The notes under the pieces are model-generated. The model did no database searches. It was given only the letters and a program-made list of their open reading frames with translations, and was not told where the DNA came from. 61,958 bases of DNA. Origin: an uncultured Bifidobacteriaceae bacterium (GTDB lineage Bacteria > Acidobacteriota > Vicinamibacteria > Vicinamibacterales > CAVVIG01). The stretch covers positions 1 to 61,958 of the forward strand of contig CAZOIK010000267.1 in NCBI GenBank assembly GCA_964579765.1. Reading direction: 5' to 3'. The translations under genes and the position numbers were made by a program. Positions 15,158-32,155 of this stretch are shown here, one piece after another (within the stretch, counting starts at the first letter, position 1; each line of letters starts with the position of its first letter).

Positions 15158-15625
15158 TCAGTGCGCGCTCGTGTGACTGACATCGTTGCGGATCCCGGAC
15201 GTCCAGCGATCCAGCGCCAGGAGGCTTCCGAGCACCAGCAGAAGACCTCCGATCGCCAGCACCATCAGCGGAGCCGACTCTCGTCCCGTGAGCGTCAATT
15301 GATTCACGGTGGTCACAATTGTGGTCTCCATGACGAGGGCGACGCTGACCCGATGCTCACGAAGATAGAAGATCAGAGTGCGGTAGAGCTCGGTCAGGAT
15401 CAGAATGTACAGAATCTGCGACAGCACGACCGACGGGCTCGCGGTCCTCAGGACCGCCGTGCGAAACAACGTCATCACGGCGGAGATCGCGATGCCGAGC
15501 AGCACGACCATCAGGCCGATAATGACGACGTCCTGGGCATTCTCGAGCACGCGCCTCAGAAGATGATGGACCTGCGTGTGCGGCGGCGGAACCCGCTGTT
15601 CCGCGTTCGTCGAGTCGTGCATCAT
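15158..15625 (-). CDS. psiE: PsiE-family (phosphate-starvation-inducible) membrane protein
   Basis: 155 aa with 4 predicted TM segments. The core ILYILILTELYRTLIFYLREHRVSVALVMETTIVTTV resembles PsiE. Confidence 0.65.
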   Translation of the reverse strand: MMHDSTNAEQRVPPPHTQVHHLLRRVLENAQDVVIIGLMVVLLGIAISAVMTLFRTAVLRTASPSVVLSQILYILILTELYRTLIFYLREHRVSVALVMETTIVTTVNQLTLTGRESAPLMVLAIGGLLLVLGSLLALDRWTSGIRNDVSHTSAH

Positions 15626-15640
15626 GCGCGGGCGTGATGG

Positions 15641-17530
15641 CTAACGATGATCGGCGGTTTCCACGGGTTCCGCGTCAATCACTTCTCCTTCCTTCGGCGC
15701 GCCCGGCCCGGGCTGGGACTGTTGCTGTGACTGCTGCTGATAGAGCGTCTGCGCCAGCGCATGCGCGGCGTGCTGCAACGCCTCGGTGGCCGTCCTCATC
15801 GCCCCCGGATCGTCGCCCTGGGACACCTTTCGCACGTCTTCGATCATCGATTCGATTCGACTGAGTTCTCCGACAGGAATTTTCTGGCGGTTGTCGCTGA
15901 TCGTCTTCTCGACGCTGTAGGCGAGCGCGTCGGACGCGTTGCGCGCCTCAATCAGCTCCCGCCGGCGCTGGTCTTCGCCCGCGTGCTCCTGCGCGTCCTT
16001 GACCAGCCGATCGACGTCCTCTTTCGTCAGGCCGCTCGTGGACGTGATCGTGACCTTCTGCTCCTTCGCGGTGGCGAGATCTTTCGCCGAGACGTTCACG
16101 ATGCCGTTGGCGTCGATGTCGAACGTCACCTGGATTTGCGGCACGCCGCGCGGCGCCGGCGGAATGCCCACGAGCTGGAATCTCCCGAGCGTGCGGTTGT
16201 CCTTCGCCAAAGGCCGCTCCCCCTGAAGGACGTGGACTTCGACGTTGGCCTGGTTGTCGGTGGCCGTGGCGAACGTCTCGCTCTTCTGCGTGGGAATCGT
16301 GGTGTTTCGCGGGATCAGCACGGTCATCACACCGCCGAGCGTTTCGATGCCCAGCGACAGCGGCGTGACGTCGAGCAGAAGGATGTCTTTCACGTCGCCC
16401 GCAAGCACGCCGCCCTGCACCGCCGCGCCCACCGCCACTACTTCGTCGGGGTTCACGCCCCTGTGCGGCTCTTTCCCGAAGAAGTCCTGAACGAGCTGCT
16501 GGATCTTCGGCATGCGCGTCAAGCCGCCGACAAGCACGACCTCGTCGATCTCTTTGGGATCCACGCCGGCGTCGGCGAGGCATTTACGGACGGGCGCCAT
16601 CGAACGCTGCAGCAGGTCGTCGACCAACTGCTCGAGCTTCGCACGCGTCAGCCTGAGCTGCAGATGCTTCGGTCCATTCTGATCGGCGGTGATGAACGGG
16701 AGGTTGATGTCCGTCTCCATCGCCGATGAGAGCTCGATCTTCGCCTTCTCCGCCGCTTCCTTGAGGCGCTGCAGGGCCATGCGGTCGGTGCCGAGATCGA
16801 TGCCCTCACTCCTCTTGAACTCCTCGGTCAGCCACTGCATCACGCGATCATCGATGTCGTCGCCGCCAAGATGCGTGTCGCCGTTCGTGGCCTTGACCTC
16901 CACGACGCCGTCACCGACTTCGAGCACCGAGATATCGAACGTGCCGCCGCCGAAGTCGTACACGGCGATTGTCTCGTCGTTCTTCTTGTCGAAGCCATAG
17001 GCAAGCGCGGCCGCGGTCGGCTCGTTGATGATGCGGCGGACGTTGAGATCGGCGATCTTGCCGGCGTCCTTGGTGGCCTGTCGCTGCGCGTCGTTGAAGT
17101 ACGCCGGAACGGTGATGACCGCGTCGGTGACTTTCTCGCCGAGATGCGCCTCGGCGGCGTCTTTCAACTTTCGGAGGATGAGCGCCGAGATTTCCGGCGG
17201 TGAGTACTGCTTCCCCCGCACCTCCACCCACGCGTCGCCGTTCCTGGCGCGGACGATCTTGTACGGAACGCGTCTGGACTCGTCGGCGACTTCGTCGTAC
17301 TGGCGGCCCATGAACCGCTTGATCGAGAAGATGGTGTTCTCGGAGTTGGTGACCGCCTGGCGCTTGGCGACCTGGCCGACAAGCCGCTGGTTGTCCTTCG
17401 TAAACGCCACGACCGAGGGCGTCGTCCGGGAGCCCTCCTGATTCACGATCACCTCGGGCTGCGCGCCCTCCATGACGGCAACGACCGAGTTGGTCGTGCC
17501 GAGATCGATACCGATGACTCGATTGCCCAT
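15641..17530 (-). CDS. dnaK: molecular chaperone DnaK (Hsp70)
   Basis: [39 protein letters not shown] and a full-length Hsp70 layout. No grpE or dnaJ is adjacent. Confidence 0.95.
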
Positions 17531-17558
17531 GAATGTGTCTCCGCGTGATGCGTGGCCG

Positions 17559-18233
17559 TTAAGGACGCGACGAACTTCGCTGGCGTCCGGTGAACCGGAG
17601 GCCGAAGCTCACCGGCACCAGCGTCGTTGCGGTCGGTGTGGTTCTCGCGTAGTGATAGCGCACCTCGACGAACGCCGATGCACCGCTGTCGCCGAACGGG
17701 AACAGAAGGCCGCCGCCCGCATTTGCCCCGAAGGCGTCCTCGCTGACCGAGCCCAGGACCTGGTTCGCGGGAACAACGACGGGACCGATGTATCCCCACC
17801 ATGGATCGACGACGTCGATGACGCCGACCGTCGGCGCCGTAAATTCGACCGTTCGCCGGTACCAACCGAGGCTGCCGAGAACGTAGCCATGCAGCATTCT
17901 GGCGATCGGGAATCTCCAGATCGGTCCGGCGGTCAGGGAGAAGACCCGTCCGGTGCCGTTCGGCACCTGCAGCTGCTGCAGCACCGAGTCGCGCACGCCG
18001 AGGTGGTTGAAGGTGAACTCGCCGAAAAGGCCGAAGCCATTGTCGAATGCCGGCCCGCCGCGCAGATCGACGTCCCATCCTGTCCTGAGCCTGCTGCTGA
18101 TGTCACCCACCGTCGCCGATGCGCCAACGCCGAGATCGACGCTCCAGTTCGTCTCCGCTCGTGCCTGAGTGATCGAGAGCAGACAAACCAACGACACCGC
18201 AACGACCGAACCGAACAGCCTTTTCCAAGTCAT
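17559..18233 (-). CDS. outer-membrane beta-barrel protein (OmpW/OmpA-barrel-like)
   Basis: Internal Met [26 protein letters not shown] (signal). It has alternating beta-strand patterns and the terminal ...[10 protein letters not shown]-like strand. Confidence 0.6.
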
Positions 18234-18274
18234 GTGCTCGCTCCGCATGATGTGAGATACCTGCAGGCGGTCGT

Positions 18275-18288
18275 GCAACATGGCTGCC
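18275..18288 (-). promoter_or_regulatory. sigma54 -24/-12 promoter for the OMP-dnaK-psiE operon
   Basis: The reverse complement reads cGGCAGC-CATG-TTGCA (consensus TGGCACG-N4-TTGCW) with correct GG-N10-GC spacing. It lies about 42 nt upstream of the ATG at 18233. Confidence 0.55.
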
Positions 18289-18306
18289 GATCCGAGAACA
18301 TCACGC

Positions 18307-18320
18307 GGCAAGCTGCTTGC
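18307..18320 (+). promoter_or_regulatory. sigma54 -24/-12 promoter for hsp20
   Basis: cGGCAAG-CTGC-TTGCC with correct spacing, 62 nt upstream of the ATG at 18382. Confidence 0.6.
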
Positions 18321-18381
18321 CTCCCGTCGAACGTTCACACCACGTCAATCCGCGGACCGTTCGCGTAAGAGGAGGCATGAG

Positions 18382-18972
18382 ATGGCACAAACGGAAGTGA
18401 GACAGCAGGACAGCGCCACCGCACTGCAGCAGCGACAGGGACACAACAACCAGCAAAGACAGGGGGCCAACGATCAGATCGCGCGCCGGCAGGCGTACCG
18501 GTTCATGAGCCCGTTCGCGCTGCTTCAGCGCATGCTCACCGACGACATCGCGAACCTTTTCGATCAGCAAGGCAGCCGCGCCGGCGGTCAGATGGCCGGC
18601 ACGGGTCCGAGCACTGCAAGCGACATGGTGACCTGGTCGCCGAAAGTCGACGTCATGCAACGCGGAAACGATCTCGTGATTCGCGCGGATCTCCCGGGCG
18701 TGAAACCTGAAGACGTGTCTGTCGAAGTGACCGATGATGCGATCGTGATGTCGGGGCAACGCAAGGAAGAGCACGTCGAGGACTGGGGCAACGTCTACCG
18801 TGTGGAGCGGACCTACGGCGCGTTCTTCAGGGAGATTCCCCTGCCGGAAGGCGCGATCGTCGATCAGGCGAAGGCGTCGTTCACCGACGGCGTCCTCGAG
18901 GTGACGGTGCCGGCGCCGTCCGAACAGGCCGCGCGCGGCCGTCGTCTGGAAATCAACAGCAGTAAGCAGTAA
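18382..18972 (+). CDS. Hsp20/alpha-crystallin small heat-shock protein
   Basis: ATG at 18382 preceded by AAGAGGAGG. Alpha-crystallin domain WSPKVDVMQRGNDLVIRADLPGVKPEDVSVEVTDDAIVMSGQRKEE...FTDGVLEVTVP. Confidence 0.9.
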   Translation: MAQTEVRQQDSATALQQRQGHNNQQRQGANDQIARRQAYRFMSPFALLQRMLTDDIANLFDQQGSRAGGQMAGTGPSTASDMVTWSPKVDVMQRGNDLVIRADLPGVKPEDVSVEVTDDAIVMSGQRKEEHVEDWGNVYRVERTYGAFFREIPLPEGAIVDQAKASFTDGVLEVTVPAPSEQAARGRRLEINSSKQ

Positions 18973-19000
18973 CGCGATAAATCGCGAGTTCGCGACGGTT

Positions 19001-19037
19001 CGGCAGCTGCGGCGGTCTTCAACACCCGCGGCTGCCG
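19001..19037 (+). terminator. hairpin downstream of hsp20 (possible terminator)
   Basis: CGGCAGCTGCGG-N13-CCGCGGCTGCCG (12-bp stem, 1 mismatch). There is no clear U-tract. Confidence 0.3.
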
Positions 19038-19048
19038 GCCGCTCCGCG

Positions 19049-19062
19049 GGCACGCCGCTTGC
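19049..19062 (+). promoter_or_regulatory. sigma54 -24/-12 promoter for the HdeD-like gene
   Basis: gGGCACG-CCGC-TTGCC, an almost perfect consensus. It implies a very short leader to the ATG at 19080 or 19089. Confidence 0.65.
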
Positions 19063-19079
19063 CTTGGAGCCTTCCCGGG

Positions 19080-19616
19080 ATGCTATCCATGGATCAATCA
19101 AGTCTCCTGATCATCAGAGGGCTTGTCGGGATTGCCCTCGGCGTGCTGGCGATGTTCTGGCCCGGCATCACGCTCGTGATTCTCGTGGGCATCTTCGGCG
19201 TGTATGCAATTCTCGACGGGCTCGCGAATCTCCTGCTCGGCTTCAGGAGCTCGCACCGCCGCTCGTGGCCGCAGATCATCCAGGGCTTGGTGGGGATCGG
19301 TGCCGGCGTGCTGACGTTCATCTGGCCGACGGTCACCGCATTGGCGCTCGTGCTCTTCATCGGCGCCTGGGCGATCGTGACCGGCGTGCTCGAGATGGTT
19401 GCCGCCGTCCGTCTGCGCAAGATGATCAAGGGCGAGTGGCTGCTCGCGCTGAGCGGCATCATGTCCATGCTGTTTGGCGCGCTCGTCTTCGCCTTCCCGG
19501 CCGCTGGCGCCGTCGGCATCGCCTGGCTACTCGGCATCTATGCCGCTGCCGCGGGCGTCGTATTGGTGACGCTGGCGCTCCGCATCCGTACGCATCAGCC
19601 CATTCCGGCGACCTAA
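19080..19616 (+). CDS. HdeD-family / DUF308 acid-resistance membrane protein (copy 1)
   Basis: Six hydrophobic segments with the DUF308 repeat pattern (LLIIRGLVGIALGVLAMFWPG..., IIQGLVGIGAGVLTFIWP..., LLALSGIMSMLFGALVFAFP). Track ORF 19059 starts at TTG; ATG 19080 is preferred. Confidence 0.8.
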   Translation: MLSMDQSSLLIIRGLVGIALGVLAMFWPGITLVILVGIFGVYAILDGLANLLLGFRSSHRRSWPQIIQGLVGIGAGVLTFIWPTVTALALVLFIGAWAIVTGVLEMVAAVRLRKMIKGEWLLALSGIMSMLFGALVFAFPAAGAVGIAWLLGIYAAAAGVVLVTLALRIRTHQPIPAT

Positions 19617-19792
19617 ACATTGGAGAAGCTGTGGCCCGCGTCCTGACAGCCGGCGCCCTCGCCACGGGTTCGCGCTGGTGGGGAGTCAGGATCTCCTCAC
19701 CTCGACAGGGGTTCAGCTCGACGCCGGAAGGATCATGCCCCTCGGGATCGCCTTCGACCACACGGCTGCTGTGCCCTGCCCCAGCCATTTCG

Positions 19793-19806
19793 GGCACAGC
19801 CAATGC
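19793..19806 (+). promoter_or_regulatory. weaker sigma54-like promoter upstream of the atypical receiver gene
   Basis: GGCACA-GCCA-ATGC with correct spacing, but the -12 is ATGC. It lies 47 nt upstream of the ATG at 19853. Confidence 0.4.
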
Positions 19807-19852
19807 GTCACTCGCACGTGTCTCTCAACGCCGAGTCCCGACCATCCACTCA

Positions 19853-20425
19853 ATGCGTCCGGTCGCACTCCTCGTCGATCGCAGCGCCGACAACCGTCGC
19901 ATGTACGCGGAGTATTTACGATTTGTCTCGTGGCGCAGCGAGGAGGCGACGGACGGACGCGACGGCTTCATAAAGGCGCTCACGCGCCCTCACGATGCCA
20001 TCGTCATGGAGACGCGGCTGGCGTTCATCAGCGGGTTCGAACTGTGCCGCATCCTCAAGCACGATCGGCTCACGGCGGCCGTGCCGATCGTCTTCGTCAC
20101 CGGCGACGGCTTCCGTTCGAACGTCGAACACGCGCGCCGGGCCGGCGCCGACTCCGTGCTCGTCAAGCCCTGTCTGCCTTCGAGCCTGGCCGTCGAACTC
20201 AATCGGTTGCGTGTCCACCAACCGCCGGACAGGGTGGCGAGCGCCGGCCGAAGACGACTCGCGAAATTGACACGCTCACTCGTGCGATGCCCGTCATGCC
20301 ACGGCCGTCTCCTCGATCTCAGTCGCGCTGACGCTCTCGGGCGGTTCGACTACGTCTTCTGTAGCGTAGCCTGCGGCACCTTCGGCTACCGCCGCGAAGC
20401 GACGCGAGAGCGGAAGGCCTTGTGA
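19853..20425 (+). CDS. atypical response-regulator receiver (Glu at phospho-acceptor position) with C-terminal zinc-ribbon
   Basis: Last 190 aa of track ORF 19064..20425. MRPVALLVDRSADNRRMY...AIVMETRLAFISGFEL...VFVTGD...VLVKPC, then RCPSCHG...FCSVACG. Confidence 0.7.
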   Translation: MRPVALLVDRSADNRRMYAEYLRFVSWRSEEATDGRDGFIKALTRPHDAIVMETRLAFISGFELCRILKHDRLTAAVPIVFVTGDGFRSNVEHARRAGADSVLVKPCLPSSLAVELNRLRVHQPPDRVASAGRRRLAKLTRSLVRCPSCHGRLLDLSRADALGRFDYVFCSVACGTFGYRREATRERKAL

Positions 20426-20462
20426 GGCACCGGAGTTGCTCCTGGCGTGCCGGGAGGGACTC

Positions 20463-21206
20463 ATGAAGTTATCGCTTGTATTGGCGACGGCGCTGGCCGT
20501 CGCGGCAACGGCGCCCGAGAAGGCTGACCTGAAAGACGTCACACGCCATGCGGACAAATACATCGGCAAGACAATCGCCGTGGACGGCGAAGTCATGGAT
20601 GTGCTCGGACCGCATCTCTTCGTCGTGGACGCTCCGCGCTGGTTTCATCTCTTTGGCGGCATGGTCGTCGTCGTGCCGGAGCCGTTCGCGGCCATCGTGC
20701 GGCGGGATGCCCCGATTCACGTGACGGGGACCGTCGAGAAGGTCGTGTTGGCGGAAGCAAGGCGGAGGTGGGCGTTCCTGAGTGATCCCGCCATCGAGGT
20801 GGATCTCTTCGAGAAGCCGGTCATCGTCGCGAGCGAAGTGACGACCATCGCGCCGAGCGTCGTCAGCCTCAGGTTTCAACCTGGACAGCCCACGGCAGGT
20901 TCACGTGGCGACACGACGATTAAAGACGCCGGCACGATCGCGAAAGCCGGCGACAGCTCGATGGCCGGACGTCACGTCGACTTGAGCGGCACCGTGTCGC
21001 GTACGGTGGGCGAAGGATTCTGGCTGAAGACGATGTCTGGCGACGAAGTGTTCGTGCTTCCGGCATCGAAGACGTCCGTGCGGCCATCGCAGAGTGTCGC
21101 GGTGCAGGGTACGCTGCTCGAATCGCCGCGACGTTCGTCTGGCCAAGCTGCGCCCGCCACGAAACAGCCGACGTACGTGTATGCCGACAAAGTGACGCCG
21201 AAGTAG
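20463..21206 (+). CDS. hypothetical exported protein with two internally repeated modules
   Basis: MKLSLVLATALAVAATAP signal. The modules GKTIAVDGEVMDVLGPHLFVVD...IHVTGTV and GRHVDLSGTVSRTVGEGFWLKT...VAVQGTL look like a duplication. Confidence 0.6.
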   Translation: MKLSLVLATALAVAATAPEKADLKDVTRHADKYIGKTIAVDGEVMDVLGPHLFVVDAPRWFHLFGGMVVVVPEPFAAIVRRDAPIHVTGTVEKVVLAEARRRWAFLSDPAIEVDLFEKPVIVASEVTTIAPSVVSLRFQPGQPTAGSRGDTTIKDAGTIAKAGDSSMAGRHVDLSGTVSRTVGEGFWLKTMSGDEVFVLPASKTSVRPSQSVAVQGTLLESPRRSSGQAAPATKQPTYVYADKVTPK

Positions 21207-21226: not shown

Positions 21227-22327
21227 CTACGACCGACCGAAGCGATAACGCTGCTTGTCGATGTTGTAGCGTCTAATCTTCGATTCGAGCGTCGACGGCG
21301 GGAGCCCCAGACGCGCGGCCGCGCCCGACAGACCAGACACGCGTCCTCCCGTTGCCGTCAGGGCGTCTTCAATCAGCCGCTGTTCGTTTTCCTCGAGCAC
21401 GGCGTCGAGGCGCGATCCGGGTTTCCGGACAGGGCGCTCAGCGAGAAGGCCCGCCGGGATTTCGAGCAGCGGCCCGTCACACAGAATGGCGCTCTGTTCG
21501 ACGATGTTTTCGAGTTGGCGGATGTTGCCCGGCCAGCTGAACGCCTCCATCCGTGCGAGCGAGTTCGGCTGGACGCCACTGAACTGTCGGCCAAGCTTCC
21601 GCTCCGCCTGACGTAGAAAATGGTACACGAGCGCCGGAATGTCCTCCGCGCGCTCGCGAAGCGCGGGCAGATGAATCGGGAACACGCTCAAGCGGTAGTA
21701 CAGGTCCACACGAAATCGCTGCTTCGCCACTTCGTCCTCCAGGTCACGGTTCGTCGCCGCGATCAGGCGAATGTCGACACGCTTGGTCTGCGAGCTGCCG
21801 AGGCGTTCGAACTCTCCTTCCTGCAGCACGCGCAGCAGCGCGACCTGCATCTCGTTCGACAACTCGCCGACTTCGTCGAGAAAGAGAGTCGCGCGATCGG
21901 CCTGTTCGAACCGCCCGATCCGGCGCTGCACCGCGCCGGTGAACGCGCCGTGCTCATGACCGAACAGCTCCGAGGAGATCAGCGTCTCGGGAATGGCGCC
22001 GACGTTCACCGCGAAGAACCGATGGCCCGCGCGCTGTGACCTGCGATGAATGGCCCTCGCGGCGAGCTCCTTGCCGGTACCGGTCTCCCCGGTGATCAGC
22101 ACCGTGGCGTTGGTCGGCGCCACGCGCTCGATGCGGTCGGACGCGTCTCGGAACGCTTGCGATCGGCTGGAAATACGATCCATCGACCGCCTGTCGCGCG
22201 CCGATTCATTCCGCTCCAGAGGGTGGGGCGTCGGACGTGGACCTGACCGTGTCGCATCGTCTTCTGACATCGCGTACATGCTTTCCTCCGGACGATCTGA
22301 ATCAGACTCGAACAGTACTGCGTCCAT
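21227..22327 (-). CDS. sigma54-dependent transcriptional activator (bEBP) lacking any N-terminal sensory domain
   Basis: AAA+ core [19 protein letters not shown], the GAFTGA loop in [13 protein letters not shown], and [15 protein letters not shown]-terminal Fis-type [23 protein letters not shown]. Only about 60 acidic residues precede the AAA+ core. Confidence 0.9.
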
Positions 22328-24218: not shown

Positions 24219-24770
24219 CTAGCTTGCACGAATCTCTTCAGCGAGTTGGCGCAACCGCAGCGCGAGCGAGAGGACGATTAACGCAAACAACCAGACATAC
24301 GATCCAATGACCCACCCGGGATCAGGCACGCCGACGGGTGACAGCGCCAACACCCCGCACAGGATCGAAAGCAAACCGGCAAGCGGCAGCGGCCACTCAC
24401 CGCTGAGATCCTTGCGAAGCGCAATGGCTACCGCAATCGAGGCGGCGCCGCACAGTAGCGCCCACACGGCAAAGACATTCACCAGCCTGTATGCGGTGGC
24501 CGCGGGTGCGGCAAACACCACCGCCCCGACGACCACGCGGACGATTGCGTCGAAAAGAAAGCTGCCGAAGCCCTCGTGCCCCTTCACGCCGATCGCGATG
24601 ATCAACGCGATGACGCCGTCGGTCAGCGCGTATGCGCCGAACAGCCACGCCAATTGCGTCATGGTCAGATTGGGCCACCACGTCATCACGCCACCGAACG
24701 AGGCGGCGATCACGACGCGCAGCAGCACGAATCCCCAGTTGGCAGCAAGCGCAGCGAGCATTGCCAGCAT
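24219..24770 (-). CDS. HdeD-family / DUF308 membrane protein (copy 2)
   Basis: Last 183 aa of track ORF 24219..25112 (MLAMLAALAANWGFVLLRVVIAASFGG...). A GGAGGA lies just upstream; the alternative start is 24761. Confidence 0.8.
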   Translation of the reverse strand: MLAMLAALAANWGFVLLRVVIAASFGGVMTWWPNLTMTQLAWLFGAYALTDGVIALIIAIGVKGHEGFGSFLFDAIVRVVVGAVVFAAPAATAYRLVNVFAVWALLCGAASIAVAIALRKDLSGEWPLPLAGLLSILCGVLALSPVGVPDPGWVIGSYVWLFALIVLSLALRLRQLAEEIRAS

Positions 24771-24781: not shown

Positions 24782-25462
24782 TTAGAACCCGATCGTGATG
24801 CGGTTGTCCACCTCGATTACGCCCGGCGCGGCCCACGCCTGACGAGCGGCTTCCTCCTTCTCCGCCCATGAGCGCACGGTCCCTCTCAGAGTCACCTTGC
24901 CACCGTCGACGTCCACGGTGATCTTCTGCGCGTCGCTCTGGGCCGTTCGCACCAGCGCGTCCTCGATCTTCTTCTTCAGGTCCGCAGGCGCCGGCCGGGC
25001 CTTCACTGTGATGAGGTTCGACACGCCTTTCACGCCGGTGAGACGGCGGACGACGCGCTCGGCGTCGTCGCGCTGGAACTGCCAGTCGACCTCGCCCTTC
25101 AGCGTCACCCACGCGTTCGAGACAGTGACGTCGAGCCGGTCAATCGGAAGGAACGCGTCCCACTCCAACGCGCGCACCGCGGCGGCCGCGATGTCCGCGT
25201 CCGTGCGTTTATCATCCTTCGACAGCCTGACCTCGACGTCGTTGGCCACGGCCGTGACGCCGCGCACGCGATGGGCCGCGTCTTCGGCCGCCCAGCGCTT
25301 GGTGTAGGAGTCCACCCATCCGGTCAACGTGACGACGCCGTCCTTGACGGAGACGCCAATCTCGCTTGCGTTGACCCGCGGCTCCCACTTCAGTTCGGCG
25401 AGCACGTCCTGCTGAATCTGCGTATCCGTTCGTGTCTCAGTTGCAAGTGCCATCGTAGTCAT
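24782..25462 (-). CDS. BON-domain protein (three BON repeats, OsmY-like)
   Basis: [20 protein letters not shown]..., with three repeats of ...[12 protein letters not shown]...K..AE.AA..V.GV..V.N.I.V. The start is 25462 or 25453. Confidence 0.85.
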
Positions 25463-25509
25463 TCCTTTCGGTTGTCGGTTGTGTCCGACGTCGTGAACAC
25501 GCTCGGAAC

Positions 25510-25523
25510 GCAATGCCCGTTCC
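25510..25523 (-). promoter_or_regulatory. sigma54-like promoter for the BON/HdeD operon
   Basis: The reverse complement reads cGGAACG-GGCA-TTGCG with correct spacing. It lies about 48 nt upstream of the ATG at 25462. Confidence 0.45.
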
Positions 25524-25587
25524 GTCATGCCCTCACGAATCTGCGAGGGGCGGGGCTTCATCACGGACCGGCCACGGCGTGCGAATG

Positions 25588-25605
25588 CTCGCGACCAATC
25601 GCGAG
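25588..25605. promoter_or_regulatory. perfect palindrome CTCGCGA-CCAA-TCGCGAG midway between divergent sigma54 promoters (candidate bEBP UAS)
   Basis: Read directly. It is 65 bp from the minus-strand -24 and 68 bp from the plus-strand -24. A related CGCGA-TAAA-TCGCG lies at 18973-18986, upstream of the promoter at 19049. Confidence 0.4.
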
Positions 25606-25672
25606 CGCGCGAATTTTCATGATCAGGGATCCCCAGCCGTGCGCGCGCGGCGCTGAATCGTCGGGACGCGGC

Positions 25673-25687
25673 TGGCACCGCAGTTGC
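25673..25687 (+). promoter_or_regulatory. sigma54 -24/-12 promoter for the second BON gene
   Basis: TGGCAC-CGCAG-TTGCC, a perfect consensus, 59 nt upstream of the ATG at 25746 (SD AAGGAG). Confidence 0.7.
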
Positions 25688-25745
25688 CCTTCCGTCGCGG
25701 CGCCGCGCGATAGGGCGCGGCGGTTCTCTTCCAAGGAGTTGCGAG

Positions 25746-26363
25746 ATGAAAAGCCGACTGGCGATTCTATTCGGCGGGCTAGGCCTGATCCTGTCAGCCG
25801 CGGCTGCGACGACACGCGCGCAGAATTCGGCAGTGGAGGCGATCCGCAAGGAGCTGTTACAGCTTCCGTACTATGGCGTCTTCGATTTTCTGGCGTTCAG
25901 TTACGACAGGGGGACCGTCACGCTCAAGGGCTATGCGTACGCCCCCGGGCTGAAGAAGGACGCCGAACACGCGGTCAAGCGCGCCGCAGGCGTCGATCAG
26001 GTCGTCGACATGATCGAGCAACTCCCTCCGTCCCAGGCCGACGACGAGCTCCGCTGGAAGACCTACTACGCGATTTACCGCGATCCGTTTCTCGCGAGGT
26101 ACGCGCCGGGCGGAGGCATGTTGTGGGGACACCGCCACGCGTTTTCCGGCCCGTTCTCTCCTATGGGAGCGGGGCCATTCCTCGCCTACGAGGCCGCGGG
26201 CGACTACCCGATCCACATCATCGTGAAGAACCTGCGTATCCTGCTGTTGGGCGTCGTGGACAACGGGAGCGACAAAATGCTGGCCGGTGTCCGCGCGCGT
26301 GACGTGCCTGGATCGCTCGGCGTCGACAACCAGCTGGTCGTCGAAGCCTCGCACACCAACTAG
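25746..26363 (+). CDS. exported BON-domain protein
   Basis: Signal [29 protein letters not shown]-like [35 protein letters not shown] and [42 protein letters not shown]. Confidence 0.8.
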
Positions 26364-26415: not shown

Positions 26416-26799
26416 CTACTTGGTGCTCGGCTCGATGCGCGTCACGCTCTCGCAGTCGGTGAGCACCACGGGAACGCCGGCCGTCGGATGCACTGTCGGC
26501 TTGACCGCGCATGTGACATCCACTTTCTGACCGACCTTGACGTCACCAAGCTTCTCGCCGGTGGCCGCCGGCACCGGCAACGTGATCTCGACGGGCTTGC
26601 CCGGCGCCACGGGCACCGCGGCGACGTCGCGAACGGTAATCGTCTTCGCTTGCGGATCGACCGCGACGACCTCGACGGCGACCGGCGCGATGTCCGAGGC
26701 CGAGCTGCTTCTCTGCTGCTGCTGTCGCTGTTGGGCCGCGACGCCCTGCGCCAGGAATACCGCGACGCCGACGGTGATTGCGAAACCGAATGGCTTCAT
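26416..26799 (-). CDS. small exported protein, unknown function
   Basis: Signal MKPFGFAITVGVAVFLAQGVAA followed by a Gln-rich linker and a beta-rich C-terminus with two Cys. Confidence 0.55.
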   Translation of the reverse strand: MKPFGFAITVGVAVFLAQGVAAQQRQQQQRSSSASDIAPVAVEVVAVDPQAKTITVRDVAAVPVAPGKPVEITLPVPAATGEKLGDVKVGQKVDVTCAVKPTVHPTAGVPVVLTDCESVTRIEPSTK

Positions 26800-26889
26800 G
26801 CTGTCTCCTTGGGGAGCGATGCGGAGGCTCCCGAAAGGCGCGACTGTTCACAAACAACGCCAATCGCCTCGGAGATCGACCCCTTCTCG

Positions 26890-27357
26890 ATGCAGGCGTT
26901 TCGTGCAGAACCGCTCGTGATCGTTCGCGAATCCTCGGATTCTCGTGTTCGTCCGACGGTCCGATTCGTGCACTTTTCCGGCACTGAGATACTCGTGAAT
27001 CTCGAATATTTCAGACGGCGACTCGAGGACATCGAAGCCGAGCTTCTTCGGAAGCGCGAACGCGCTGTCGCGCAGGCCCCTCGCACGAGCGAAGGCGACG
27101 TCGCCGACTCCGGCGATCGCGCGGTCGTCGACGAGCTGAAGGACGAGTACTTCGCGTTCACGGAAGCAGACCTCGAAATCCTCGTGCAGGTCCGCGCCGC
27201 GCTCAGGCGCATCGACGATGGGACGTTCGGGTTATGTGCCGTCGATGGCCGGCCCATCGACGAGAAGCGCCTCGAGGCCCAGCCATGGACGCCCTATTGC
27301 CTGCAGCACCAGCGGGAACTCGAAGAGCGGCAGCGAGTGCGGACGCCGACGCTGTAG
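26890..27357 (+). CDS. DksA/TraR-family protein with degenerate zinc finger
   Basis: C-terminal part of track ORF 26287..27357. Coiled-coil region ...EYFRRRLEDIEAELLRK...EADLEILVQVRAALRRIDDGTFGLCAVDGRPIDEKRLEAQPWTPYCLQHQ. The start is uncertain (ATG 26890 or GTG 26995). Confidence 0.6.
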   Translation: MQAFRAEPLVIVRESSDSRVRPTVRFVHFSGTEILVNLEYFRRRLEDIEAELLRKRERAVAQAPRTSEGDVADSGDRAVVDELKDEYFAFTEADLEILVQVRAALRRIDDGTFGLCAVDGRPIDEKRLEAQPWTPYCLQHQRELEERQRVRTPTL

Positions 27358-27358
27358 T

Positions 27359-27621
27359 TCAGTACTCGGCAAAGACCTCGTCGTTGTAGCAGTACAGCAG
27401 CGCTCACCCGGCTCCGCCGACGCGATCACCGGATGATGGCTCGAGCGGGCGTGCTTGCTCGCGCGTTTATTGGGCGAGGAGTCACAGCACAGCGTCACGC
27501 CGCATGCCTGGCAAGTCCGCAGATGAACCCACGGATCGCCGGTCCTCATACACGCTTCGCAGACGTGGACGCGCGGCGGCTTAACCGTCGAGAGGTTTTC
27601 GATGTCGGCACACGCAGCCAT
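27359..27621 (-). pseudogene. UBP-type zinc-finger protein with a 1-nt frameshift near the 3' end
   Basis: CEACMRTGDPWVHLRTCQACGVTLCCDSSPNKRASKHARSSHHPVIASAEPGER, then the frame is lost. The -1 frame continues LYCYNDEVFAEY*, the expected family ending, stopping at 27359-27361. The present ORF instead reads on to 27232. Confidence 0.65.
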
Positions 27622-27657
27622 GCTGCGGGCCTGTGCATAAAAGCGCACCTGCGCAGC

Positions 27658-27671
27658 GGCTCACTGATTGC
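27658..27671 (+). promoter_or_regulatory. weak sigma54-like element upstream of the TrxR-like relic
   Basis: GGCTCA-CTGA-TTGCG with correct spacing, but only 15 nt from the ATG at 27686. Confidence 0.3.
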
Positions 27672-27685
27672 GCCACGCGAGCGTT

Positions 27686-28480
27686 ATGGCCGACGAGTCT
27701 CCGCCCACGCCGCCGAACGTCGTCAAGGTGCTCGGCAGGACCGCCTCGCCGCCGTGCTACGCGATACGCGACTTCCTCTACCGCAACGACGCGCCCTTCG
27801 AATGGATCGAAGTGAACAACCCCGACGCGCCGATGCCCGTGTGCGTGTTTGCGGACGGAACCCGGCTCGAGCGGGCCGACGTTCAGCGCATCAGCGACAA
27901 GCTGGGATGGTTTCACGACGTATCCCGGTCGGAATACGACGTCGCGATTTACGGCGCGGGACCGGCCGGGCTGAGCGTCGCCGTCTACGCTGCCTCCGAG
28001 GGATTGAAGACCGTCGTCGTCGAACGATGGGCGATCGGTGGACAGGCCGGCAGCAGTCCAAAGATAGAGAACTACCTGGGGTTTCCCCAAGGCATCAGCG
28101 GCGCGGAGCTGGCGGAGCGGGCGCGGGAACAGGCGTGCGCGTTTGGCGCAGAGACTCTGATCGCGCGCGAAGGAGTTCGAGGCGAGTTCACGGCGGGCAA
28201 GCGTGTCGGCTATCTCGCCGACGGCACGAAGGTCGTCGCACGGGCGGCGATTTGCGCGACCGGCATCGACTACCACCGGCTGAGCGTGCCGAACGAGGAG
28301 AACCTCCGGGGCGCGGGCGTCTACTACGGCGCAGGTGCGAGCGAAGCGCAGCTGTGCATCGGCCTCCCGTCGTCATCGCCGGCGGCGGCAATTCCGCGGC
28401 GCAGGCCACGCTGCACTTCTCGAAGTACTCACCACATGTCACGCTCGTGGTTCGCGGCAGCGGACTCAAGGATATGGTCG
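27686..28480 (+). pseudogene. glutaredoxin-like + thioredoxin-reductase-like flavoprotein, frameshifted (~28362) and 3'-truncated (~28480)
   Basis: Frame 1: VKVLGRTASPPCYAIRDFLYRNDAPFEWIEV...YDVAIYGAGPAGLSVAVYAA...GAGASEAQLCIG. Frame 2 continues PPVVIAGGGNSAAQATLHFSKYSPHVTLVVRGSGLKD. After that the similarity ends; the NADPH domain and C-terminus are missing. Confidence 0.7.
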
Positions 28481-28569
28481 ACAATCAGATCGTAGCCATC
28501 CGGATTCAGAAACCGCTGAAGCAGCTGAACCTGATCAACCGAATCGTCGATGACGAGGGCGCGAGGCAT
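28426..28569 (-). pseudogene. relic of a second response-regulator gene (first ~27 codons only)
   Basis: The ATG overlaps the upstream TAA by 1 nt (TAATG). MPRALVIDDSVDQVQLLQRFLNPDGYDLIV is a typical receiver N-terminus. It then runs into antisense TrxR-like sequence and stops. Confidence 0.55.
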
Positions 28570-29048
28570 TACGCGCGTCCTTCTACACATGCGGTGTCGT
28601 GATTGCGGCTGATGCGTCCGGTGGTCGCCAGCGACACCGCTTCAAGCAGTCCGTTGATCGTGCAGGGCTTGTCGAGGAAGGCTTCGTCCTCCCACAGCAT
28701 GGCGCGGTCTGCAAACAAACGATCGCTGAAGCCAGTCAGGTACAGCACCTTCAAGGCTGGATCGTCCCGCCGAAGCAGCCGCGCAAGTTCGTCGCCGTTC
28801 ATGTGCGGCATCTGCAGGTCCGTCAGCAGCAAATCGATTCCGTCGATTTCGTGGACCAGTCGAAGCGCCTCCTCGGCGCCAGCCGCGCTCCATGTGGTGA
28901 CACCTGCCCCATTCAGCACTTGTTGCACAAACTTACGCACAGGCTCCTCGTCGTCGACAACGAGCACTCTGAGCGGGTGCCGCTCGAATGCCTGCGAATG
29001 TCGAGTCGACGCGACGACCATCGACAGGGTCCGCGACAGTGACATCAT
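28569..29048 (-). CDS. single-domain CheY-like response regulator
   Basis: LRVLVVDDEEPVRKFV...IDLLLTDLQMPHMNGDEL...KVLYLTGF...FLDKP. Start at MMSLSR (29048/29045). Confidence 0.85.
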   Translation of the reverse strand: MMSLSRTLSMVVASTRHSQAFERHPLRVLVVDDEEPVRKFVQQVLNGAGVTTWSAAGAEEALRLVHEIDGIDLLLTDLQMPHMNGDELARLLRRDDPALKVLYLTGFSDRLFADRAMLWEDEAFLDKPCTINGLLEAVSLATTGRISRNHDTACVEGRA

Positions 29049-29292
29049 GTGAGTCTCTCGATCAGCGTTCCACAATCGAGGCACTCGCGAACGCTGGCCA
29101 CAAGTGCTTCCTTTCGTACGGGGCTTCCGCCCGACACAGCAGGATGTGTGCCACGTCGGTTGCCGCCGGCAGGAAGACATTTCATGAAAGGAAGCGGACT
29201 CCTCCGGGTTGTTTTCCCCAAGGCGCGGGAATTATTCGCGGCGCATCCAGGCCGCGCCATGCGCTCAAGGCCCAAAATCGGCCTTTCGGCGA

Positions 29293-29307
29293 TGGCACCG
29301 CGGTTGC
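29293..29307 (+). promoter_or_regulatory. sigma54 -24/-12 promoter for the hybrid kinase gene
   Basis: TGGCAC-CGCGG-TTGCC. It is identical at 17 of 18 positions to the promoter at 25673-25690. Confidence 0.7.
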
Positions 29308-29320
29308 CCTGCACGGGCCC

Positions 29321-32155
29321 ATGACCGTGTCGTTCCCACCTGCTCGCAGTCTTATGCGCGAACCCGTGTTCGGCGAATCGGCTGCCGGCGGCGGCCCGAC
29401 TGGCGATCGAGAGGCAAGCGCTCGTCGCCAGCGGGTGCGTGAGATGGCTCCTGACGATCCGCTGGACGTTCTGCTCGTCGATGACGGCTTGACCGCAGTC
29501 CTGCTCACCGAGGCGGCCCTGGCGCAGCAGGGCCGGTTCCGGTTGCGGCGTAGCAAGAGACTTGGCGAGGCGCTGGAGCTGCTCTCGAAGGCGCATTTTG
29601 ACGTGGTGCTTCTCGCCCTGGGTTTGCCGGACAGCCAGGGACTACGCACTCTGCAAACACTGCGGCACAAGAATCCGAAAGTTGCTGTCGTCGTGCTCAC
29701 CGAGAAGGACGACGAGGAGTTGTCGCTGCGGGCGCTTCAGGAAGGAGCGAACGACTATCTGGTGAAAGGGCCGGCAGCCACCGAGCAACTGAACCGGGCG
29801 ATCCGCTACGCCGTCGAGCGCGCCAAGAGCGACGAGGCGCTTCGGCAGAGCGAGGAAGTGTTCCGCGGAGCCTTCGAGAACACCAAGGTATCAATGGCCC
29901 TCGCGGGGCTGGACAATCGGTTCCTCCGCGTGAACGAGGCCTTTTCGCTTATGTTCGGCCATTCCAAGGAGGAAATGCTGCGGTTGTCCGTCGCCGACAT
30001 CACGTACCCCGATGACCTGGCCGAGAGCTACGCCTACAGGGAGCGGCTGCTTACCGGAGAGGGCCAGTTCTTCCAGATGGAAAAGCGGTTTCTCCACAGT
30101 GAAGGCCATGTCGTTTGGGGCTTGACGAACATTTCCCTGGTGCGGGGAACGTCCGACGAGCCGATCTACTACGTCGTGCAAGTGCAGGATGTGACGCAGC
30201 GGAAACTGGCCGAGGAGTCCCTGCGGAAGCGAGAGGAGCAAATCCGACTTCTGCTGGACTCGACGGCCGAGGCGATTTATGGAATCGACATGCACGGCAA
30301 CTGCACGCTTTCCAACCGGGCCTGCGCCCAGTTGCTCGGGTACGAGAGCGCTGACGACCTGCTCGGCAAGCACATGCACAACCTCATGCATCATACGAAG
30401 CCGGACGGCACGCCGAACCCCGAAGAGGGATGCCGCATCTATCAAGCGTTCCGGCGGGGAGAAGGGACGCATGTGGACGACGAACTCTTTTGGCGATCGG
30501 ACGGGACCAGCTTCCCCGCCGAATATTTCTCGTACCCGATCAAGCAGGGGGACAACCTCATCGGTTCGGTGGTGACGTTCCTGGACATCAGTGAGCGAAA
30601 GCACGCGGAAGAGAGTGCGCGCACGTTGGCTGCGGAGCGCAACCATCTCCTGGGACAACTCCGTTTGCAGATTGAACGGATGCCCCTTGTCTATCTCCTC
30701 TTCGACGCCGACTTTCGGATCACTGACTGGAATCCGGCGGCGCAACGGACCTTTGGATACACCAGAGAGGAGGCCCGCGGTAAGCAGCCCAACGAGCTGA
30801 TTCCGCCGTCGTTCCATCAGGATGCGGCGAGGATCCTCGAGCGCATTCGGGCGGGGGACATGGCGGCCCACTCCGTCAATGAGAACCTGACGAAAGACGG
30901 TCGAACGATCACCTGCGAGTGGTTCAACACGCCACTCTTGGCGGATGACGGGCGATTTGGCGGGTTGCTTTGCCTCGGGAGGGATGTCACAGACCAAAAG
31001 ACATTGCAGGCGCAGTTTCAGCAGGCGCAGAAGATGGAGGCGATCGGCCAACTGGCGGGTGGCGTGGCCCATGACTTCAACAACCTGCTCACGATCATTT
31101 CCGGCTACAGTGAGATGCTGCTCGCCACGCTGGGGGCGAGCGACCCGATGCGGGAGTCTGTCAAGGAAATCAGCGAAGCCGGTCATCGAGCCGCCTCGCT
31201 CACCCGCCAATTGCTCGCCTTCAGCCGGAAGACGGTCCTGGAGCCGAAGGTTCTTGACCTGAACGAGACCGTCCGTGAAACCGAGAAGTTTCTGCGGCGG
31301 CTGATCGGCGAGGACGTGTTGCTCACTGGCGTGCTCGATCCGAACATCAGTCGAGTGAAGGTCGACCCTGGCCAGTTGGGACAGGTGTTGATGAATCTGG
31401 CCGTCAACGCCCGTGACGCCATGCCCAGGGGCGGGACGCTTACGGTGGAAACCCGTAACGTCGAACTGGATCACGAATACTCACGCCTTCGCCCCGAACT
31501 CAAGCCGGGCCGCTACGTCCTGCTGTCGATCACCGACACCGGTAGCGGCATGACCGCGGACGTGAAGGCCAAGATTTTTGAGCCGTTCTTCACGACGAAG
31601 GGGGTCGGCAAGGGGACCGGGCTGGGGCTCGCGGTCGTCCTCGGCATCGTCAGGCAAAGCGGAGGGCACGTCGAAGTCGACAGCGAGCCTGAAGTTGGCA
31701 CCACGTTCAAAATCTACTTCCCAGCCGTGGAAGAACAGGTTTCCCCAACCAGAGGACTTGACGGCGGCAGGGATCCGCGGGGCACCGAGACGGTCCTGCT
31801 GGTCGAGGACGAGAACGGCGTGCGTGGACTGGCGGCGCTCGTGCTGCAAAGCTACGGCTACAAGGTGTTGACGGCGGGCAACGGCGTGGAAGCCGTCGAG
31901 GCCGTCGAGAAGCACCGGGGCGGGATCGACCTGGTGGTGACCGACGTCGTGATGCCCGGCATGGGCGGGCCGGACTTAGCGGAAGGCGTGCAGTCCCGTT
32001 TCCCCCAGGTGCGAGTGCTGTTCACAAGCGGGTACACGGACGACGCCGTAGTGCGGCACGGCCTCCTGTCCGAGAAGGTTGCCTTCCTTCAGAAGCCGTA
32101 CTCGCCCCTTGCGCTCGTCAGGAAAGTGCGGCACGTGTTGGACGAGCGTCGATAG
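29321..32155 (+). CDS. hybrid sensor histidine kinase/response regulator (REC-PAS-PAS-PAS-HisKA-HATPase_c-REC)
   Basis: DVLLVDDGLTAV... receiver, three PAS-like blocks, H-box GGVAHDFNNLLTII, N/G boxes NLAVNARDAM and GTGLGLAVV, and the C-terminal receiver TVLLVEDENGVRGL...VVTDVVMPGMGG. The start is uncertain: given the promoter at 29293, ATG 29354 or 29444 may be the real start. Confidence 0.9.
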   Translation: MTVSFPPARSLMREPVFGESAAGGGPTGDREASARRQRVREMAPDDPLDVLLVDDGLTAVLLTEAALAQQGRFRLRRSKRLGEALELLSKAHFDVVLLALGLPDSQGLRTLQTLRHKNPKVAVVVLTEKDDEELSLRALQEGANDYLVKGPAATEQLNRAIRYAVERAKSDEALRQSEEVFRGAFENTKVSMALAGLDNRFLRVNEAFSLMFGHSKEEMLRLSVADITYPDDLAESYAYRERLLTGEGQFFQMEKRFLHSEGHVVWGLTNISLVRGTSDEPIYYVVQVQDVTQRKLAEESLRKREEQIRLLLDSTAEAIYGIDMHGNCTLSNRACAQLLGYESADDLLGKHMHNLMHHTKPDGTPNPEEGCRIYQAFRRGEGTHVDDELFWRSDGTSFPAEYFSYPIKQGDNLIGSVVTFLDISERKHAEESARTLAAERNHLLGQLRLQIERMPLVYLLFDADFRITDWNPAAQRTFGYTREEARGKQPNELIPPSFHQDAARILERIRAGDMAAHSVNENLTKDGRTITCEWFNTPLLADDGRFGGLLCLGRDVTDQKTLQAQFQQAQKMEAIGQLAGGVAHDFNNLLTIISGYSEMLLATLGASDPMRESVKEISEAGHRAASLTRQLLAFSRKTVLEPKVLDLNETVRETEKFLRRLIGEDVLLTGVLDPNISRVKVDPGQLGQVLMNLAVNARDAMPRGGTLTVETRNVELDHEYSRLRPELKPGRYVLLSITDTGSGMTADVKAKIFEPFFTTKGVGKGTGLGLAVVLGIVRQSGGHVEVDSEPEVGTTFKIYFPAVEEQVSPTRGLDGGRDPRGTETVLLVEDENGVRGLAALVLQSYGYKVLTAGNGVEAVEAVEKHRGGIDLVVTDVVMPGMGGPDLAEGVQSRFPQVRVLFTSGYTDDAVVRHGLLSEKVAFLQKPYSPLALVRKVRHVLDERR

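Follow-up and report, generated by a model that had tools for sequence, protein, structure and literature searches.

How does a bacterium switch on a cluster of chaperone and envelope-protection genes whose promoters appear to be of the -24/-12 type read by sigma-54, and not of the type usual for heat-shock genes? This question is raised by contig CAZOIK010000267.1 (assembly GCA_964579765.1), which by its GTDB lineage belongs to the Vicinamibacterales of the Acidobacteriota, and whose whole stretch of 61,958 nucleotides, with a G+C content of about 65%, is called the window below. Between positions 15,158 and 32,155 the window carries an island with genes for DnaK, Hsp20, PsiE, HdeD-like (DUF308) and BON-domain proteins, together with a gene for a bacterial enhancer-binding protein (bEBP). 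The Acidobacteriota count among the most abundant bacteria of soil, but their gene regulation is almost unstudied. The answer proposed here, which is drawn from sequence comparison and in which we place good confidence, is that the island belongs to a sigma-54-dependent stress regulon of Acidobacteriota, with the bEBP acting through an upstream activating sequence (UAS).

Promoter elements and their conservation

An earlier note on this DNA, made from the letters alone, had listed eight -24/-12 elements. All eight were found within 1 nt of the positions given there, each an exact GG-N10-GC, each intergenic and facing a gene (Table 1). Their conservation was followed through a comparison set of 11 other loci (designated by L numbers) carrying bEBP orthologues, which were taken from a protein search and contig look-ups. 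First of all, the GG-N10-GC elements of orthologous genes lie at similar distances from the start codon. Upstream of dnaK the element reads GGCA(G/A)-N5-TTGCA across the related loci and is kept in L001, L037, L040 and L041; that of hsp20 is the palindromic GGCA(A/G)G-N3-CTTGCC (kept in L037, L040 and L041); DUF308 genes are preceded by GGCAC-N5-TTGCC, the DUF308a element being kept in L041, L042 and L043; secreted BON genes have TGGCAC-N5-TTGC(G/C), that of BON2 being kept in L036, L037, L042 and L043; and three-BON genes have the unusual GGAAC-N5-TTGCG, a variant shared by BON3 with L040 and L045. Moreover, in the intergenic alignments the -24/-12 element and the UAS are the sole conserved blocks in otherwise diverged spacers, and the promoter-UAS modules are kept among the related loci while gene order varies. 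Upstream of hsp20 in L043 the UAS is present and no -24/-12 element is recognisable; sequence errors are possible in this case because the contig carries fragmented genes. The earlier proposal of a battery of sigma-54 promoters with a resident bEBP is supported by the conserved elements, and likewise by the phased UAS and the invariant GAFTGA motif described below; conservation upholds the promoters assigned to dnaK, hsp20, DUF308a, BON2 and BON3.

Taken by itself, TGGC-N8-TGC occurs in the window no more often than chance would give (9 observed, 11.9 expected), and on this ground it might be held that GG-N10-GC pairs are chance in DNA of 65% G+C, the genes having sigma-70-type promoters under NarL/LuxR-type two-component systems in a DosR-like dormancy regulon; LuxR-type regulators and PAS/GAF kinases do flank every locus. 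Matches to position weight matrices (PWMs), however, are concentrated in the intergenic DNA of the island and in the right orientation. With a consensus PWM at a threshold of at least 8 bits, 8 of 19 matches fall, correctly oriented, in the approximately 1.75 kb of island intergenic DNA, and the approximately 5 kb of intergenic DNA in the rest of the window has none. With a family PWM, which was built from sites of other loci only, 8 window matches of at least 12 bits were obtained against 2.6 ± 1.7 in 200 dinucleotide shuffles. Seven of these 8 lie inside 18.2-29.4 kb, and 6 are canonical elements upstream of genes; enrichment in the island, for which the earlier note had suggested a whole-genome scan, is seen over the 62-kb window. 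The match at 29149-29164 was discounted for want of the GG; the only one outside the island, at 13095-13110, was rejected as a promoter because it lies inside a coding sequence, in the signal-peptide region of a 688-aa protein, and a high-scoring match of this kind would suit the chance explanation. That explanation is nevertheless regarded as highly improbable, since the elements are kept upstream of orthologous genes as the spacers diverge, stand at a quantised distance from an independent conserved motif, and are always accompanied by a GAFTGA-bearing bEBP. Scanning for sigma-70 promoters and terminators of the E. coli type gave no information (1 site, with 2.5 expected).

The upstream activating sequence

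The independent motif is the UAS, of about 35 bp, with the consensus TCGCGA-N4-TCACGAA-N2-CGCGATTTTTCG. When a profile built without the window sequence was searched with nhmmer, exactly three copies were found in the window, all in intergenic DNA of the island, and no match below E = 0.05 was found in 586 kb of control loci. The UAS-plus-promoter module was found again in L045, L046 and L047, outside the set used for model building, and the evidence from the UAS is independent of the choice of PWM sites. Paired TCGCGA hexamers had been tried as an enhancer signature; by themselves they are not significant (3 observed against 2.9 expected), the hexamer is common, and the 35-bp profile took their place.

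Of the 18 UAS copies, 15 are flanked by a sigma-54 PWM match of at least 7 bits that points away from them, against 9.3% of random positions. When the spacing is counted from one fixed base of the UAS up to the -25 G, it comes on the TCGCGA side to 44, 44, 52-54 (nine cases), 66, 76 and 85 nt, and on the TTTTCG side 65, 75-78 (nine cases) and 88 nt; that is to say, the outliers are displaced in steps of about 10-11 nt, about one helical turn. The three UAS-linked promoters of the window stand at 54 nt (DUF308a), 76 nt (BON3) and 75 nt (BON2). A single UAS is often common to a divergent promoter pair, as at BON3/BON2, and the geometry as a whole is what would be expected of a bEBP enhancer. At the dnaK/hsp20 and response-regulator/kinase pairs of the window no UAS was detected, the search of their intergenic DNA giving only an insignificant fragment (E = 22) and no inverted repeat of note.

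The activator and its control

The bEBP of the window has a counterpart of 100% identity among the annotated proteins of a metagenome-assembled genome of the Vicinamibacterales (Acidobacteriota), and it belongs to a large family of soil-metagenome proteins of about 350 aa with 61-85% identity among the best 120 matches. In 9 of the 11 other loci its orthologues (65-85% identity) stand beside HSP70, HSP20, BON or DUF308 genes; in L047 the neighbours are DsbA-ClpS-ClpA instead, and L039 has the orthologue but no UAS, promoters or cargo within 10 kb. A scan of metagenome contigs with bEBP peptides returned distant NtrC-type relatives only. Alignment A1 shows the GAFTGA loop to be invariant, as are both Walker motifs (A and B), and the C-terminal helix-turn-helix (HTH_8, 32 bits against a cut-off of 22) is nearly invariant among orthologues. 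The start codon is most likely at 22279. The protein falls below every NCBIfam equivalog cut-off for a named bEBP, PspF included, and the ZraR structure (1ojl) is among its top PDB sequence matches. There is no sensor domain, the AAA+ domain being preceded by no more than some 45 residues of variable sequence, so that control in trans or by synthesis would be expected.

GerE-type regulators stand beside the bEBP in nearly all loci, and it could be argued from this that the sigma-54 promoters are genuine and that the 35-bp element is bound by a LuxR/GerE-type or other factor, the bEBP binding elsewhere or acting from solution. The UAS is made of short palindromic units (TCGCGA, TTCACGAA, CGA-N4-TCG) such as dimeric HTH proteins bind. 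The position of its centre, at about -85 to -95, and its helical phasing are nevertheless typical of bEBP enhancers, for which the sites of NtrC, PspF and ZraR are established examples; HTH_8 is nearly invariant, whereas the set of GerE proteins differs between loci; and a better candidate for a LuxR site exists in the CACGTAGTTGTACGAGC box beside the GerE gene. Binding by a factor other than the bEBP is accordingly thought quite unlikely, and the bEBP is kept as the preferred ligand of the UAS.

The CACGTAGTTGTACGAGC box abuts a sigma-70-like element, is nearly invariant in five loci, and occurs in exactly those loci that have a GerE-type gene directly before the bEBP gene, namely the window, L001, L039, L040 and L041. 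Box and sigma-70-like element together are a candidate operator/promoter for synthesis of the activator. A second source is suggested by gene order: in the window, L037 and L040 the bEBP gene follows the sigma-54-driven three-BON gene in the same orientation, and the gaps are short. Transcription that starts at the BON3 promoter is therefore likely to read through into the bEBP gene, with positive feedback on the bEBP, and the promoter at 25509-25524(-) possibly also serves the LuxR-bEBP genes.

In six other loci (L036, L037, L042, L043, L045 and L046) the gene immediately preceding the bEBP encodes a stand-alone receiver of 124-136 aa. The cassette there consists of an ETR1_N-HisKA kinase, a GerE response regulator, the stand-alone receiver and then the bEBP, and the receiver of L046 has a weak FleQ-type match. 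The order of receiver and bEBP suggests an NtrC-like activator in split form, and the sensor domain upstream of it would be of the ethylene-receptor type. No clear orthologue of this adjoining receiver was found in the window, where the neighbour is a PAS-PAS-GAF-GerE protein (22365-24185) in which HisKA_3 is reduced to a fragment and HATPase and receiver domains are absent. Because its two halves correspond to genes that stand apart in L037 and L040, one for a PAS kinase and one for a GerE response regulator, it has the look of a fusion or deletion product.

The dnaK/hsp20 promoters in this genome

Compared with L037 (12364-12491), L040 and L041 in alignment A4, the window lacks about 112 bp, the UAS included, between its dnaK and hsp20 promoters (18290-18305). 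Both promoters are retained, back to back and 16 bp apart; the nearest UAS is about 650 bp away, and none was detected within 600 bp. Because the UAS-bearing segment has been lost, activation of dnaK and hsp20 is uncertain here: looping is possible, and the arm may be weakened or silent. It may be supposed that this arm is decoupled altogether, with silent or weakly activated promoters in an island that is partly a relic, and the truncated thioredoxin-reductase-like gene, the fused PAS-GAF-LuxR gene and the 'OMP' and receiver/zinc-finger genes, inserted relative to the layout in relatives, agree with the missing segment in this respect. Yet both promoters and both reading frames are intact, dnaK still scores above the NCBIfam equivalog cut-offs for DnaK (1008 bits, where 648 are required), and UAS-1 is present in cis at a distance of about 650 bp, bEBP enhancers being able to act over hundreds of bp through DNA looping, as established for NtrC. 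Decoupling is therefore a possible reading, though a doubtful one. Orthologues of dnaK with 75-79% identity occur in six related loci; in L001 and L046 the gene is split by a frameshift, possibly through assembly errors.

Proposed mechanism and its significance

From motifs, conservation, spacing, gene content and domain architecture we infer the protein bound to the UAS, the dependence on sigma-54 in vivo, the inducing signal and the cascade, which may be pictured as follows. RNA polymerase with sigma-54 would wait in closed complexes at the -24/-12 promoters of at least five transcription units (OMP-dnaK-psiE, hsp20, DUF308a, BON3-DUF308b and BON2), and would probably also serve the gene for the secreted protein that starts at 20463, as well as the response-regulator/kinase pair. 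The bEBP (21227-22279) most likely binds the UAS, whose centre would be placed some 85-95 bp before the transcription start and always on the same helical face, with a single UAS often acting for two divergent promoters; ATP hydrolysis by the activator would then open the promoters. Because a sensor domain is absent, the output of the bEBP would most likely be set by the amount made, and synthesis could take two routes: its own sigma-70-type promoter, with the conserved operator next to the LuxR-type regulator gene, and read-through from the sigma-54 BON3 promoter, giving positive feedback. The inducing signal is probably proteotoxic, osmotic or desiccation stress.

Several points weigh against this scheme. 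The consensus PWM is only a self-made approximation of a published compilation, and the PWM evidence is partly circular because the family sites were picked with it. Part of the promoter set also stands apart: the elements at 19792 and 27657 (19793 and 27658 in the earlier list) and the newly found one at 20425 have neither UAS nor conserved counterpart, the orthologues of the gene behind 20425-20440 following DUF308 in an operon. The same holds at 29.1-29.3 kb for the promoters at 29138 and 29293, which are excellent motif matches with no UAS nearby and no conserved counterpart in related loci, the 29293 element not being found before the kinase orthologue of L040. UAS-3 adjoins no canonical promoter and has only TTGGCGttgttTGTGA at the usual spacing; the dnaK and hsp20 promoters lack the UAS that is present in relatives; and the UAS is not assignable to the bEBP by co-occurrence, because LuxR-type regulators co-occur too. 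Finally, rpoN is not visible in the 62-kb window; RpoN is encoded in three of three Acidobacteria genomes surveyed (PMC3372290).

As to the heat-shock systems proper, the earlier note had held that the island does not follow their usual logic, and for HrcA this agrees with the search: the CIRCE inverted repeat TTAGCACTC-N9-GAGTGCTAA has no match in the window at up to 3 mismatches. No Rfam family, thermosensors such as ROSE included, reaches its gathering score there. A more far-reaching reading would make the sensor-less sigma-54 activator, and not sigma-32, HrcA or HspR, the master switch of an acidobacterial proteostasis and envelope-stress regulon, for heat, desiccation or dormancy, that includes the canonical DnaK, arranged as a two-tier circuit in a cluster analogous to the transmissible locus of stress tolerance (tLST). 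In the first tier, gas-, redox- or light-sensing PAS/GAF/ETR1_N kinases could govern activator synthesis through NarL-type regulators; in the second, DnaK and Hsp20 may titrate the activator, by analogy with DnaK, which titrates sigma-32, and PspA, which titrates PspF. As a whole this reading is judged unlikely. If it were true, the one-face geometry of 53 or 76 nt would offer a tractable model of a short-range enhancer, and in the cluster soil bacteria could have their own analogue of the tLST, a mobile stress island.

For the regulon as proposed at the outset, the locus supplies a testable set of promoters, enhancer motif, activator and cargo, in which sigma-54 would be linked to a canonical DnaK and to small heat-shock, BON and HdeD-like envelope proteins; if confirmed, the stress-protection role of sigma-54 would be extended to another phylum. 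The pair of UAS and -24/-12 motif can be used for regulon annotation in metagenome-assembled genomes, and its unusually regular enhancer-promoter spacing is an offering for mechanistic work.

Gene map and composition of the island

Genes were called by codon-position G+C and annotated with Pfam and NCBIfam (Table 1). The cargo read earlier from the sequence was recovered by Pfam, which gives PsiE, DnaK, Hsp20, two DUF308, two BON, zf-UBP, a DksA/TraR-type protein, a truncated Pyr_redox_2 and the bEBP; several open reading frame (ORF) boundaries had to be corrected (19853, 20463, 26995-27357, 28569-29048, 29444 and 22279). The 'OMP' kept its signal peptide and lost its family name: it has no Pfam or NCBIfam match, and no homologue in the related loci.

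Table 1. Sequence elements and genes of the island (window coordinates).
Feature	Position	Strand	Evidence or remark
sigma-54-type promoter of OMP-dnaK-psiE, cGGCAGccatgTTGCA	18289-18274	-	family PWM 13.4 bits
sigma-54-type promoter of hsp20, cGGCAAgctgcTTGCC, palindromic cGGCAAGctgCTTGCC	18306-18321	+	family PWM 18.2 bits
sigma-54-type promoter of DUF308a, gGGCACgccgcTTGCC	19048-19063	+	family PWM 16.5 bits
weak sigma-54-like element, GGCACagccaATGCG	19792-19807	+	A, not T, at -14; no UAS, no orthologous site; unsupported
candidate sigma-54 promoter, newly found, aGGCACcggagTTGCT	20425-20440	+	23 nt before ribosome-binding site (RBS) and ATG 20463
sigma-54-type promoter of BON3-DUF308b, GGAACgggcaTTGCG / cGGAACgggcaTTGCG	25524-25509	-	family PWM 13.3 bits; GGAAC variant
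sigma-54-type promoter of BON2, TGGCACcgcagTTGCC	25673-25688	+	family PWM 14.0 bits
degenerate element, newly found, TTGGCGttgttTGTGA	26863-26846	-	best flank of UAS-3; GA, not GC, at -12
weak sigma-54-like element, GGCTCactgaTTGCG / cGGCTCactgaTTGCG	27657-27672	+	no UAS, no conservation; unsupported
candidate sigma-54 promoter of response regulator, newly found, TGGCACacatcCTGCT	29153-29138	-	top window match of consensus PWM, 13.4 bits
candidate sigma-54 promoter of hybrid kinase, TGGCACcgcggTTGCC	29293-29308	+	family PWM 15.5 bits
UAS-1, candidate enhancer for DUF308a promoter	18972-19006	-	nhmmer E = 2.9e-6; conserved block in alignment A2
UAS-2, common to divergent BON3/BON2 promoters	25587-25618	+	nhmmer E = 3.7e-6; conserved block in alignment A3
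UAS-3, orphan	26913-26947	+	nhmmer E = 1.1e-3; between small secreted-protein and DksA-like genes (26800-26994)
conserved box CACGTAGTTGTACGAGC abutting sigma-70-like TTGAG(G/C)-N17-TAnnnT	22357-22312	-	nearly invariant in 5 loci
CACGTAGTTGTACGAGC box in relatives	L001 ~9915-9965, L039 ~9766-9816, L040 ~9898-9948, L041 ~9839-9889		
psiE	15158-15625	-	Pfam PsiE 40 bits; last gene of OMP-dnaK-psiE unit
dnaK, canonical Hsp70	15641-17530	-	Pfam HSP70 875 bits
putative secreted/outer-membrane protein ('OMP')	17559-18233	-	signal peptide; RBS before ATG 18233; first gene of dnaK unit
hsp20, small heat-shock protein	18382-18972	+	Pfam HSP20 77 bits; RBS AGGAGG before ATG 18382
DUF308a, HdeD-like membrane protein	19080-19616	+	Pfam DUF308 103 bits
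receiver + treble-clef zinc-finger protein	19853-20425	+	analysis of third-codon-position G+C (GC3) by frame; Pfam Response_reg 45.5 bits, weak VATC match
secreted protein, weak DUF5818 match	20463-21206	+	signal peptide
bEBP, AAA+ with GAFTGA + HTH_8	21227-22279	-	Pfam Sigma54_activat 234 bits, HTH_8 32 bits
PAS-PAS-GAF-(partial HisKA_3)-GerE/LuxR regulator	22365-24185	-	Pfam
DUF308b, HdeD-like membrane protein	24219-24770	-	Pfam DUF308 53 bits
BON3, three-BON-domain protein	24782-25453	-	Pfam BON 177 bits; 71% identity to L001 orthologue
BON2, secreted BON-domain protein	25746-26363	+	Pfam BON 50 bits; orthologues 62-71% identity in 5 loci
small secreted protein	26416-26799	-	signal peptide + RBS; 68% identical orthologue in L036
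DksA/TraR-type zinc-finger protein	26995-27357	+	Pfam zf-dskA_traR 26 bits, cut-off 24.9
zf-UBP protein	27232-27648	-	Pfam zf-UBP 27.1 bits, cut-off 22.7
truncated thioredoxin-reductase-like flavoprotein	27686-28495	+	N-terminal part only of Pyr_redox_2
stand-alone response-regulator receiver	28569-29048	-	Pfam Response_reg 77 bits
hybrid histidine kinase (REC, three PAS, HisKA, HATPase, REC)	29444-32155	+	Pfam; start inferred from receiver-domain N-terminus

The gene psiE starts 15 bp after dnaK, and PsiE is also terminal in the dnaK operon of L046. DUF308a has orthologues with 58-75% identity in six loci, and the secreted protein at 20463-21206 has orthologues with 41-71% identity in L036, L037, L040 and L041. 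Between these two genes, GC3 frame analysis replaced the ORF 19678-20331 by the receiver/zinc-finger gene 19853-20425(+), which is without counterpart in the related loci and looks inserted; in its receiver, Glu apparently stands at the position of the phospho-accepting Asp (…AIVMETRL…), and the zinc finger is C-terminal. At the predicted start of the BON2 transcript there is a G+C-rich hairpin (25701-25722; 8 pairs, all G-C) followed by a T-rich run, which is not obviously conserved in orthologous leaders. The ORF 26796-27257(-), which spans the UAS-3 region, is probably no gene, its codon composition being like that of non-coding DNA, and the DksA-like (+) and zf-UBP (-) frames overlap convergently at their 3′ ends by 126 bp (27232-27357). 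Full-length orthologues of the thioredoxin-reductase (TrxR)-like protein are present in L042 (406 aa) and in L001 (645 aa).

The cargo of the relatives is partly of other kinds. L001 (11357-19348) has BON, a ClpP-like SDH protease, three Hsp20, DnaK, a DegP-like protease and the 645-aa TrxR-like protein; L046 (1-4415) has DnaK, Hsp20, BON, DUF308, Usp and PsiE; and in L047 (5079-8630) DsbA, ClpS and ClpA follow the promoter-UAS module.

The GC3 is 0.70-0.85 for genes at about 15-36 kb against 0.82-0.91 in the flanks, and it is plausible that the island was acquired or rearranged; no tRNA gene or integrase was found in a scan of the window. Megablast of the island against plasmids gave no sign of a plasmid-borne copy, matching only housekeeping dnaK genes (for example that of Sphingomonas with dnaJ, grpE and hrcA). 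To the right of the kinase lies a gene-poor stretch of about 1 kb (32156-33110; 61% G+C), and then, within 33111-38725, come a gene whose product matches PDC-S06, a candidate defence protein of PADLOC (AAA_13 ATPase), over the full length (E = 7e-150), a 152-aa ORF without matches and a TraG/TraD-like coupling protein.

Comparison with known systems

A literature search found no description of this regulon, its activator family or its UAS. As predicted from sequence, the island is a further case of the classical sigma-54/bEBP class, marked by a newly defined enhancer motif and by an unusual cargo, canonical DnaK among it. One of the nearest likenesses is with PspF and the psp genes of Enterobacteria, in which the activator likewise consists of AAA+ and C-terminal HTH only, with no regulatory domain of its own, and in which sigma-54 promoters, envelope/stress cargo and an enhancer in a divergent intergenic region are combined. 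The differences are that the island has no PspA, PspB or PspC genes (Pfam), that its bEBP reaches 258 bits against the TIGR02974 PspF equivalog cut-off of 443.55 bits and serves many promoters where PspF serves one or two, and that the cargo (DnaK, Hsp20, BON, DUF308) and the UAS sequence are not those of psp.

In the ZraR system, sigma-54 drives the periplasmic chaperone ZraP, and the divergent zraP/zraSR promoters have a common central enhancer, as at BON3/BON2; ZraR, being a response regulator, carries a receiver domain, which the island bEBP lacks. In E. coli, dnaK itself is under sigma-32 and not sigma-54. Sigma-54 control of chaperone genes is nonetheless not unprecedented, because the E. 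coli small heat-shock protein gene ibpB has a sigma-54 promoter (PMC2831329, PMC4591121), and because a 2025 survey of Bacteroidota and Planctomycetota predicted sigma-54 promoters by position matrix upstream of groEL, groES, grpE, dnaJ, dnaK and ibpA (PMC12316311). In the text of that survey Acidobacteria are unmentioned, and it describes neither an activator nor an enhancer. Outside the acidobacteria, the bEBP has its nearest relatives in Flavobacterium (43-50% identity), at loci that have no homologues of the island cargo within 10 kb.

The bEBPs HrpR and HrpS of Pseudomonas syringae have no sensor domain, and their output depends largely on how their genes are transcribed under upstream two-component systems; this matches the cascade suggested here by the conserved promoter and box. 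They differ in forming a hetero-hexamer, in serving a single promoter (hrpL) and virulence cargo, and in having a known anti-activator, HrpV, none being identified here.

The tLST set consists of the ClpK/ClpG disaggregase, sHsp20, sHsp-GI, YfdX, HdeD-GI, Trx-GI, KefB, PsiE-GI and DegP. The overlap with it claimed by the earlier note stands for the HSP20, DUF308 and PsiE families: as in the tLST, small heat-shock, HdeD-like, PsiE and thioredoxin-related families are clustered, relatives add a DegP-like protease (L001) and ClpS-ClpA (L047), the GC3 of the island is below that of its flanks, and mobile-element and defence genes adjoin. It fails for ClpK/ClpG, YfdX and KefB, which are not among the window proteins (Pfam), and for PsiE at sequence level, tblastn against plasmids giving only two matches, from the cyanobacterial Acaryochloris, at 34% identity; regulation differs as well. 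The likeness is at protein-family level and is one of analogy, not of shared ancestry.

Lastly, the DosR regulon of mycobacteria shares with these loci alpha-crystallin-type Hsp20, BON proteins and, in L046, Usp, as well as NarL/GerE-type regulators and PAS/GAF HisKA_3 kinases beside these genes. DosR acts directly on sigma-70-type promoters, whereas in the island a sigma-54/bEBP layer would stand between regulator and cargo.

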